A DNA stretch of 4,312 nt, taken from assembly GCF_003334405.1 (NCBI RefSeq), contig NZ_QOWM01000033.1, one strand, 5' to 3'. Both the position numbers and the translations under genes were made by a program. The DNA is from Escherichia coli (lineage in GTDB: Bacteria > Pseudomonadota > Gammaproteobacteria > Enterobacterales > Enterobacteriaceae). Below the pieces are notes generated by a model. It was not told the origin of the DNA, did not search any database, and saw only the letters and a list, made by a program, of their open reading frames with translations. This document shows, one piece after another, positions 214 to 2,204 of the stretch (position 1 is the stretch's first letter; every line of letters starts with the position of its first letter).

Positions 214-1242
214 ATGAACCACTCCTTAAAACCCTGGAACACATTTGGCATTGATCATAATGCTCAGCACATTGTATGTGCCGAAGACGAACAACAATTA
301 CTCAATGCCTGGCAGTATGCAACCGCAGAAGGACAACCCGTTCTTATTCTGGGTGAAGGAAGTAATGTACTTTTTCTGGAGGACTATCGCGGCACGGTGA
401 TCATCAACCGGATCAAAGGTATCGAAATTCATGATGAACCTGATGCGTGGTATTTACATGTAGGAGCCGGAGAAAACTGGCATCGTCTGGTAAAATACAC
501 TTTGCAGGAAGGTATGCCTGGTCTGGAAAATCTGGCATTAATTCCTGGTTGTGTCGGCTCATCACCTATCCAGAATATTGGTGCTTATGGCGTAGAATTA
601 CAGCGAGTTTGCGCTTATGTTGATTCTGTTGAACTGGCGACAGGCAAGCAAGTGCGCTTAACTGCCAAAGAGTGCCGTTTTGGCTATCGCGACAGTATTT
701 TTAAACATGAATACCAGGACCGCTTCGCTATTGTAGCCGTAGGTCTGCGTCTGCCAAAAGAGTGGCAACCTGTACTAACGTATGGTGACTTAACTCGTCT
801 GGATCCTACAACAGTAACGCCACAGCAAGTATTTAATGCGGTGTGTCATATGCGCACCACCAAACTCCCTGATCCAAAAGTGAATGGCAATGCCGGTAGT
901 TTCTTCAAAAACCCTGTTGTATCTGCCGAAACGGCTAAAGCATTACTGTCACAATTTCCAACAGCACCAAATTACCCCCAGGCGGATGGTTCAGTAAAAC
1001 TGGCAGCAGGTTGGCTTATCGATCAGTGCCAGCTAAAAGGGATGCAAATAGGTGGGGCTGCGGTGCACCGTCAACAGGCGTTAGTTCTCATTAATGAAGA
1101 CAATGCAAAAAGCGAAGATGTTGTACAGCTGGCGCATCATGTAAGACAGAAAGTTGGTGAAAAATTTAATGTCTGGCTTGAGCCTGAAGTCCGCTTTATT
1201 GGTGCATCAGGTGAAGTGAGCGCAGTGGAGACAATTTCATGA
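214..1242 (+). CDS. murB: UDP-N-acetylenolpyruvoylglucosamine reductase (MurB)
   Basis: 342-aa ORF. Length and sequence ([19 protein letters not shown]..., central GxGSN motif region [11 protein letters not shown] typical of the FAD-binding domain) match E. coli MurB as I recall it. AGGA sits about 8 nt upstream of the ATG. Stop codon overlaps the birA start (ATGA). Confidence 0.95.
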
Positions 1243-2204
1243 AGGATAACACCGTGCCACTGAAATTGATTGCCCTGTTAGCGAACGGTGAATTTCACTC
1301 TGGCGAGCAGTTGGGTGAAACGCTGGGAATGAGCCGGGCGGCTATTAATAAACACATTCAGACACTGCGTGACTGGGGCGTTGATGTCTTTACCGTTCCG
1401 GGTAAAGGATACAGCCTGCCTGAGCCTATCCAGTTACTTAATGCTAAACAGATATTGGGTCAGCTGGATGGCGGTAGTGTAGCCGTGCTGCCAGTGATTG
1501 ACTCCACGAATCAGTACCTTCTTGATCGTATCGGAGAGCTTAAATCGGGCGATGCTTGCATTGCAGAATACCAGCAGGCTGGCCGTGGTCGCCGGGGTCG
1601 GAAATGGTTTTCGCCTTTTGGCGCAAACTTATATTTGTCGATGTTCTGGCGTCTGGAACAAGGCCCGGCGGCGGCGATTGGTTTAAGTCTGGTTATCGGT
1701 ATCGTGATGGCGGAAGTATTACGCAAGCTGGGTGCAGATAAAGTTCGTGTTAAATGGCCTAATGACCTCTATCTGCAGGATCGCAAGCTGGCAGGCATTC
1801 TTGTGGAGCTGACTGGCAAAACTGGCGATGCGGCGCAAATAGTCATTGGAGCCGGGATCAACATGGCAATGCGCCGTGTTGAAGAGAGTGTCGTTAATCA
1901 GGGGTGGATCACGCTGCAGGAAGCGGGGATCAATCTCGATCGTAATACGTTGGCGGCCATGCTAATACGTGAATTACGTGCTGCGTTGGAACTCTTCGAA
2001 CAAGAAGGATTGGCACCTTATCTGTCGCGCTGGGAAAAGCTGGATAATTTTATTAATCGCCCAGTGAAACTTATCATTGGTGATAAAGAAATATTTGGCA
2101 TTTCACGCGGAATAGACAAACAGGGGGCTTTATTACTTGAGCAGGATGGAATAATAAAACCCTGGATGGGCGGTGAAATATCCCTGCGTAGTGCAGAAAA
2201 ATAA
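1239..2204 (+). CDS. birA: Bifunctional biotin-[acetyl-CoA-carboxylase] ligase / bio operon repressor (BirA)
   Basis: 321-aa ORF. N-terminal helix-turn-helix region ([26 protein letters not shown]) and the biotin-binding loop GRGRRGRKW are recognisable. Length matches E. coli BirA. GGAG lies 8 nt upstream of the ATG. Start overlaps the murB stop. Confidence 0.95.

Follow-up and report, generated by a model that had tools for sequence, protein, structure and literature searches.

Conservation of the four-nucleotide murB-birA overlap and likely translational coupling of birA to murB in Escherichia coli

In a 4,312-base stretch of the E. coli chromosome, which we refer to as the window, murB ends and birA begins within a single ATGA, and our analysis suggests that translation of birA is likely coupled to translation of murB. 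We put at roughly 65% the probability that birA has no promoter, is carried on the murB mRNA, and is initiated at AUG 1239 with help from a GGAG motif and in a manner at least partly dependent on ribosomes arriving from murB. We infer that the two genes are co-transcribed and that birA translation depends on murB being translated. Coupling appears likely because the junction is conserved, a Shine-Dalgarno (SD)-like motif within murB looks selected, and the ratio of BirA to MurB synthesis is 0.57, and because coupling was seen elsewhere in four of the five ATGA pairs from E. coli itself that were assayed. The overlap itself is ordinary and was already known, being annotated by RefSeq and catalogued in Huber et al. 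2023, and it belongs to a very common kind of junction. What is new here is that an NTGA overlap was found in 39 of 39 Enterobacterales, that the spacing was short in 73 of 78 adjacent gene pairs, that the SD-like motif bears signs of selection, and that the BirA/MurB ratio was 0.57. The cross-species counts only quantify how firmly the murB-birA junction is kept. Our full-text literature search found no study of murB-birA coupling or operon structure.

The window opens in the last part of an rRNA operon and reaches as far as the beginning of tuf, corresponding to the rrnB-murB-birA-coaA-tRNA-tufB region, and its features are collected in Table 1. Gene identities were assigned from the list of open reading frames (ORFs), NCBIfam models with curated cutoffs, Rfam, and the annotation that RefSeq gives for an identical E. 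coli genome, all of which were concordant. MurB scored 539 bits against NCBIfam NF000755 (cutoff 277), and BirA scored 655 bits against NF008849 (cutoff 474), a model that it matched from position 1. The MurB ORF was identical to residues 1-342 of PDB 1MBB, ending in AVETIS, and the BirA ORF was identical to residues 1-321 of PDB 1BIA, beginning with MKDNTV. Both proteins have been quantified by proteomics and by ribosome profiling, so these are real, expressed protein genes with the ends given here. The identities of murB and birA are secure, and the names assigned to them in the original prediction were right.

Table 1. Features of the murB-birA region, in window coordinates.
Feature	Position	Strand	Basis or description
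Terminator hairpin of the upstream rRNA operon	94-125	+	AAGGCCATCC-TGAC-GGATGGCCTT followed by a T run; read from the sequence
murB, UDP-N-acetylmuramate dehydrogenase, 342 aa	214-1242	+	ORF list, NCBIfam, PDB, RefSeq; stop TGA 1240-1242
Predicted local RNA hairpin	1220-1279	+	Folding; birA SD, spacer and AUG paired with birA codons 7-14
SD-like GGAG in murB codons Val338-Glu339 (GTG GAG)	1227-1230	+	8 nt upstream of the birA ATG
ATGA overlap ('-4' spacing)	1239-1242	+	birA ATG 1239-1241 and murB TGA 1240-1242 have two bases in common
birA, biotin-protein ligase and bio operon repressor, 321 aa	1239-2204	+	ORF list, NCBIfam, PDB, RefSeq; stop TAA 2202-2204
GC-rich hairpin between the convergent birA and coaA stops	2208-2227	either	Terminator scan: - strand, 7 pairs, T-rich tail
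coaA, convergent to birA	2233-3183	-	NCBIfam CoaA, 480 bits; RefSeq
Four tRNAs	3545-3983	+	Rfam matches
tuf, start only	4101	+	ORF list, RefSeq

The region upstream of murB is bounded by the rRNA-operon terminator hairpin, which we take to be rrnB T2, with ~90 nt separating it from the murB ATG. In the RefSeq annotation of the identical genome, 5S rRNA lies ~300 nt upstream of murB. At the other end, the palindrome between the convergent stops lies 4 nt past the birA stop on the + strand, and it is likely to serve both as the 3' end of a murB-birA transcript and as the coaA terminator.

Read directly, the junction consists of GGAG (1227-1230), the 8-nt spacer ACAATTTC (1231-1238), the birA ATG (1239-1241), and the murB TGA (1240-1242), and the letters at positions 1236-1245 are TTCATGAAGG. 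The original prediction had placed the ATG/TGA overlap here with a GGAG 8 nt upstream within murB, and its coordinates proved exact to the base. ATG 1239 is the first start codon in the birA frame after the upstream stop, which ends at 1214. RefSeq/PGAP annotates the 4-nt overlap identically in the identical E. coli genome, it is also annotated in the most divergent E. coli match (91.9% identity), and the junction region was present in 5421 of 5426 complete E. coli genomes. The ATGA string was not enriched in the window, with 15 occurrences observed and ~20 expected.

The arrangement had also been described as typical of operon partners, and this was right. No spacing of co-directional genes is commoner in E. 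coli than -4 (Huber et al. 2023), which makes the murB-birA overlap unsurprising. The same study placed 707 of 2987 unidirectional E. coli pairs at distances of -8 to +6 nt. According to the review of Brown and Wade 2025, the -4 motif evolves easily because the start codon already gives three of its four bases, and this ease of evolution is part of the reason for its abundance. The accompanying hint that it is odd for two functionally unrelated genes to be joined in this way did not hold up, since 69.6% of the E. coli pairs that are spaced by -8 to +10 nt are not complex partners and murB-birA is itself among them, tabulated as '-4, CMPLX not' (Huber et al. 2023, Table S2).

We propose that murB and birA constitute a two-gene operon in which birA, without a promoter of its own, would be translated from the mRNA that it has in common with murB. 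A ribosome ending murB at UGA 1240-1242 would sit on the birA AUG at 1239-1241, and the GGAG in murB codons 338-339 may retain the 30S subunit through pairing with the anti-SD. birA could then be started by the same ribosome or subunit that finished murB, or by a fresh 30S entering while local structure is held open by the ribosome that is terminating. Either way, BirA would be made as a roughly fixed fraction (~0.57) of a low, constitutive MurB output. With the genes overlapping by 4 nt, neither a terminator nor a promoter can fit between them. The -4 distance falls within the range for termination-reinitiation (TeRe; ~-8 to +10 nt, Huber et al. 2023), for which an SD motif in the 3' coding end of the upstream gene is also expected, and GGAG occupies that place in murB. 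The translational coupling that the original prediction read from this arrangement is a reasonable expectation and is partly supported.

The alternative that survives best is that the two genes share an mRNA and that free 30S subunits start at the GGAG and AUG of birA regardless of murB translation. The overlap would then be a compact, easily evolved, mutationally 'sticky' by-product with no regulatory role. We consider this unlikely, although it is a serious competitor, and much of the evidence below bears on it in one direction or the other.

A BirA alignment of 8 sequences was used to search a single genome from each species, and the murB stop and the birA start were placed in 80 species. 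Among the matches listed in the protein homologue search, identities were all at least 86%, and divergent sequences were taken from a representative search. murB immediately preceded birA in 78 of these species, the exceptions being two Orbaceae in which murB was ~1.1 kb away. All 39 sampled Enterobacterales had an NTGA overlap, with the birA start codon being ATG in 29, GTG in 9, and TTG in 1, and the murB stop being TGA in all; TGA was likewise invariant in an alignment of 40 junction sequences. The overlap was kept despite BirA identity as low as 64% and despite variation in the last MurB residue (S, A, K, G, or L). Its retention in 39 of 39 Enterobacterales indicates a real, maintained feature and not an accident of one genome.

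Outside the Enterobacterales, birA starts were chosen by a heuristic, as the start nearest the position predicted by the alignment. Among the 39 loci from Vibrionales, Aeromonadales, and Alteromonadales, the distance from stop to start was -4 in 14, -8 in 6, -1 in 5, 0 in 3, +1 in 4, and +5 in 2, and it lay within -8 to +6 nt in 34. The outlying distances of -13, -14, -17, and +57 are possibly mis-calls arising from the heuristic choice of start. Over all four orders, 73 of 78 adjacent pairs were spaced at -8 to +6 nt, a range in which Huber et al. 2023 saw coupling work, and this supports coupling.

These distances also argue against initiation that ignores murB, because the junctions that have changed outside the Enterobacterales have not drifted apart. 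The same can be said of the 10 of 39 Enterobacterales with weak GTG or TTG starts, in which the junction has not loosened. On the other hand, the conservation is partly forced, in that the T and G of the TGA belong to the birA start codon and its A opens the second codon, a conserved Lys/Arg. A stop fixed by the needs of birA, together with the attribution of -4 abundance to easy evolution, is what would be expected of an overlap with no regulatory role.

We then considered the SD-like motif. The duplex of GGAG with the anti-SD at the 16S 3' end was calculated at -6.4 kcal/mol, in the 6th percentile of murB-internal windows, and across 77 species the mean SD duplex energy was -5.84 kcal/mol versus a background of -1.96 kcal/mol. 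The Glu codon of the motif was GAG in 29 of 35 Enterobacterales and GAA in the other 6, compared with 41% GAG elsewhere in the same genes (P=5e-7), and at the genus level it was GAG in 21 of 24 (P=4e-6); as species are not independent, both P values are indicative only. Where Glu was replaced, the substitutes GGA-G and AAG-G retained the purine run. The bias nevertheless has a clear direction, and from this pattern of codons and energies the birA ribosome-binding site looks to have been selected inside the murB coding sequence.

Folding placed the birA start of E. coli in a local hairpin, the core of which is formed by CAATTTCA (1232-1239) paired with TGAAATTG (1261-1268). In a 65-nt fold this hairpin had a minimum free energy of -16.3 kcal/mol and a z score of -1.72, with 15 of 200 shuffled sequences folding equally well, and a 121-nt fold of the junction gave a z score of -1.0. 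The hairpin was predicted in E. coli and E. albertii, both Escherichia, and the other Enterobacterales folded differently. RNAalifold found no consensus structure in the 40 junction sequences, and on this null result and the weak z scores we excluded a conserved occluding RNA structure at the junction. An occluding hairpin specific to Escherichia is possible but weakly supported by these folding models.

The accessibility of the birA start was divided in its implications. Opening the site in E. coli was calculated to cost 12.9 kcal/mol, compared with 12.7 kcal/mol for the coding background and 8.3 kcal/mol at the murB start site, so that the birA site of E. coli is as closed as average coding sequence. 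This favors dependence on upstream ribosomes and counts against unaided entry of free 30S subunits into a site held within the -16.3 kcal/mol hairpin. Across the order, in contrast, the birA start region was more open than the coding background in 36 of 39 Enterobacterales (9.4 versus 12.5). An open site with a selected SD bears the marks of an ordinary start site, and this, like the absence of a conserved occluding structure, favors initiation irrespective of murB.

Known systems likewise point both ways. In the reporter assays of Huber et al. 2019 (PMC6728339), 4 of the 5 ATGA pairs native to E. coli, and 13 of 14 pairs overall, proved strictly coupled, with the SD contributing in most of the coupled ATGA pairs. 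The record of the ATGA pairs weighs against a birA start that is indifferent to murB translation. The four strictly coupled native pairs, hyfH-hyfI, astD-astB, ydbH-ynbE, and menD-menH, have the same -4 ATGA junction as murB-birA, and for them the region from -99 to +30 was enough for coupling. Their coupling was demonstrated with premature stops and mRNA controls, whereas that of murB-birA is a prediction, and the murB-birA SD duplex of -6.4 kcal/mol is weaker than the limit of -8.4 kcal/mol for a strong SD in that study. The fifth pair, bioB-bioF, is an ATGA pair devoted, like birA, to biotin metabolism, and yet it was uncoupled: bioF was fully translated when ribosomes were kept from the overlap, and loss of its weak SD was without effect. 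It thus provides a precedent for birA starting on its own. Coupling collapses at a distance of ~20 nt (Huber et al. 2023), and, across the genome, kasugamycin has less effect on genes that overlap the cistron before them (Zhang et al. 2022).

The mechanism of coupling in general is unsettled (Brown and Wade 2025). Saito et al. 2020 (PMC7538156) found that depletion of RRF left coupling unaffected, and argued for de novo initiation aided by unfolding, with reinitiation not being the main route. The dominance of de novo initiation in E. coli, as argued there, is a further point in favor of free 30S subunits initiating birA. The classical coupled pairs that served as reporters in that study, from trpB-trpA to rplK-rplA, are co-directional operon neighbors, as murB and birA are proposed to be, and translation of the upstream gene raised that of the downstream gene 1.7- to 7-fold. 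They differ in that their partners act in one pathway or complex, while murB and birA are unrelated.

Expression data were in keeping with coupled translation from a common mRNA. By the ribosome profiling of Li et al. 2014, as given in Dataset EV6 of Mori et al. 2021, 228 copies of MurB and 131 copies of BirA are synthesized per generation, a ratio of 0.57, and the BirA/MurB ratio by xTop proteomics was 0.55 (Mori et al. 2021). BirA synthesis below that of MurB is required by reinitiation, and is compatible with it, but it is a necessary and not a sufficient sign and fits two independent sites of similar strength equally well. In RNA-seq of Shigella under anaerobiosis, both genes were down, murB by -2.23 and birA by -1.62. 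A consensus scan of the + strand from 214 to 1242 revealed no promoter-like or terminator-like site.

A second alternative is that birA has a separate transcript beginning inside or at the end of murB, for example a leaderless mRNA starting 1 nt before the AUG, so that murB translation would be irrelevant. Table S4 of Kim et al. 2012 does list a 5' end at NC_000913 position 4171104, equivalent to window position 1238, which was classed as a leaderless birA mRNA. This end was represented by only 5 reads, however, and a K. pneumoniae list had no counterpart. Junctions inside operons (leuC, leuD, nuoN, rplD) fill many rows of the same table, a sign that its entries may include processing ends or noise. 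The best -35/-10 match to sigma-70 for an end at 1238 was 4/12, worse than at 99% of window positions, and the promoter scan of murB on the + strand was empty. With 5 reads and a 4/12 promoter match, we regard the 1238 end as a processing end or noise and not as a leaderless birA mRNA, and we find a separate birA transcript very improbable. The supplements of the SMRT-Cappable-seq and kasugamycin studies mentioned neither murB nor birA.

That the overlap is an annotation artefact, with the true birA start at the in-frame GTG 1254 or TTG 1266 that do exist downstream of ATG 1239, or with murB ending elsewhere, is next to impossible, because in 39 of 39 Enterobacterales the birA start aligned at residue 1 and the N-terminus was a conserved M/V-K-D, the NCBIfam BirA model matched from position 1, the termini of BirA and MurB are exactly those of the PDB chains, and GTG 1254 is not conserved as a start, being ATT or ATC in many species.

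birA is also found tightly joined to another unrelated cofactor gene, coaX, both as the adjacent birA-coaX pair and as BirA/CoaX fusions (COG0340@COG1521, Huber et al. 2023, Table S5; NCBIfam NF009862). In 12 of the 80 loci, coaX started -4 to +8 nt from the birA stop, making a murB-birA-coaX train. The pantothenate kinase gene of the window is instead the type I coaA, which is non-homologous to coaX and lies on the opposite strand, so murB-birA is the sole junction of this kind here. A broader reading, which we consider doubtful, is that the murB-birA(-coaX) junction has been kept for its function across at least four gammaproteobacterial orders, with BirA, a repressor whose action is set by its concentration, deliberately left promoter-less and made at a set proportion of an essential enzyme that is produced constitutively. 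If that were true, activation of biotin and CoA, both cofactors of lipid synthesis, would be tied to the synthesis of cell-wall precursors, and BirA would be buffered against expression noise.

Beyond housekeeping annotation, the junction, a textbook case of the kind most frequent between bacterial genes, is of little importance. It does have practical consequences in E. coli, where editing or knockdown of murB should be expected to affect the essential birA through common transcription and probably through translation as well. The geometry of the junction is invariant in 39 genus-diverse relatives and the structure surrounding it is not, which would make murB-birA a clean natural test of reinitiation versus unfolding. 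For the biology of the organism, BirA dosage sets the threshold of biotin sensing, and that dosage is probably fixed by the output of MurB and not by a promoter belonging to birA.

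We compared the murB-birA locus across 80 species, one genome per species and 39 of them Enterobacterales (loci carry L numbers in the table), and found murB directly upstream of birA in all but 2, both Orbaceae. In these two exceptions the genes were separated by ~1.1 kb, and birA had its own AG-rich site upstream (GCGAGGAGCAA ATG in L042, one of the pair). The birA start codon itself drifted within the Enterobacterales, being GTG in 9 of 39 species and TTG in 1, while the murB TGA and the -4 geometry, in which the birA start codon overlaps that stop as NTGA (ATGA at 1239-1242 in the window), were unchanged. 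Tolerance of weak birA start codons would fit with ribosomes being delivered from murB.

An RNA 5' end supported by 5 reads has been mapped to position 1238, the base immediately preceding the birA ATG, and classed as a leaderless mRNA (Kim et al. 2012, Table S4). Several further entries of that table are internal operon start codons. We detected no promoter-like sequence upstream of this 5' end, the best candidate having 4 of 12 matches. The Shine-Dalgarno sequence and AUG of birA fall within a predicted hairpin of -16.3 kcal/mol (z = -1.72). This hairpin was Escherichia-specific; it was present in E. albertii and absent in the other 38 Enterobacterales because the Lys-Leu encoded by its downstream arm varies.

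A strong terminator hairpin belonging to the upstream rRNA operon is clearly visible in the sequence, although the terminator scan of the window missed it. The murB ATG follows this hairpin by only ~90 nt, an interval in which the best sigma-70 match was 7/12, so the source of murB-birA transcription is not evident from sequence.

Features of the window and of the compared murB-birA loci
Feature	Location	Detail
rRNA operon terminator hairpin	94-125	AAGGCCATCC-TGAC-GGATGGCCTT, then T's
Hairpin over birA Shine-Dalgarno and AUG	1220-1279	CAATTTCA (1232-1239) pairs with TGAAATTG (1261-1268)
birA-coaA intergenic gap	2205-2232	28 nt; with both stop codons, 2202-2235
GC-rich palindrome (single)	2208-2227	fills most of the birA-coaA gap
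Flanks of the murB-birA-coaA block	1-213 and 3545-4312	
GTG birA start	L003, L004, L005, L009, L012, L013, L019, L024, L036	
TTG birA start	L026	Yersinia thracica
murB not directly upstream of birA	L042 and L045	Gilliamella sp., Orbaceae bacterium ESL0727
coaX directly downstream of birA	L041, L043, L044, L062, L066, L068, L070, L073, L075, L079, L080, L081	
tRNA cluster downstream of birA	L041, L051, L059, L061, L062, L064, L065, L068, L077, L080, L081	
5S rRNA upstream of murB	L075, 11-125	Pseudidiomarina

Downstream, the stop codons of birA and coaA converge on a gap of just 28 nt, and the palindrome that occupies most of it has a T-run for the minus strand; the corresponding run for the plus strand is weaker. 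The extent of coaA differed between sources: the mechanical ORF list starts it at TTG 3339 (2233-3339, minus strand; 368 aa) and RefSeq at ATG 3183 (316 aa). The NCBIfam model for type I pantothenate kinase matched from residue 10 of a 317-aa translation of 2236-3186, whose first codon immediately precedes the RefSeq ATG. The position of this match supports the shorter form over the 368-aa one.

Across the 80 loci, the slot directly after birA held a pantothenate kinase gene in most species, and this gene was of two non-homologous kinds. Type I coaA, convergent to birA, occupied it at 53 loci, including the window (2233-3183, minus strand). At 12 others it was type III coaX, co-directional and starting -4 to +8 nt from the birA stop, and there a murB-birA-coaX train of abutting genes arises. 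The alternation looks like in-place non-orthologous replacement accompanied by a switch of orientation.

Matches to the murB-birA junction in the E. coli genome collection included two on plasmid-labelled records, and at least one genome carried the junction in two copies; these are possibly mislabelled replicons or duplications. Many contigs of 4-5 kb stop just beyond the murB-birA-coaA block, as is expected if repeats (rrn and tuf) flank it.

The order rRNA operon, murB, birA, pantothenate kinase gene, tRNA cluster was also seen beyond the Enterobacterales. A tRNA cluster followed birA at 11 of the 20 loci scanned, among them members of Photobacterium, Salinivibrio, Aeromonas, Shewanella and Pseudoalteromonas. 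For Salmonella, Brandis et al. (2019) describe rrnB and tufB as separated by the inserted genes murB, birA and coaA. If such an insertion of the murB-birA-coaA block occurred, it would be older than the split of these orders.
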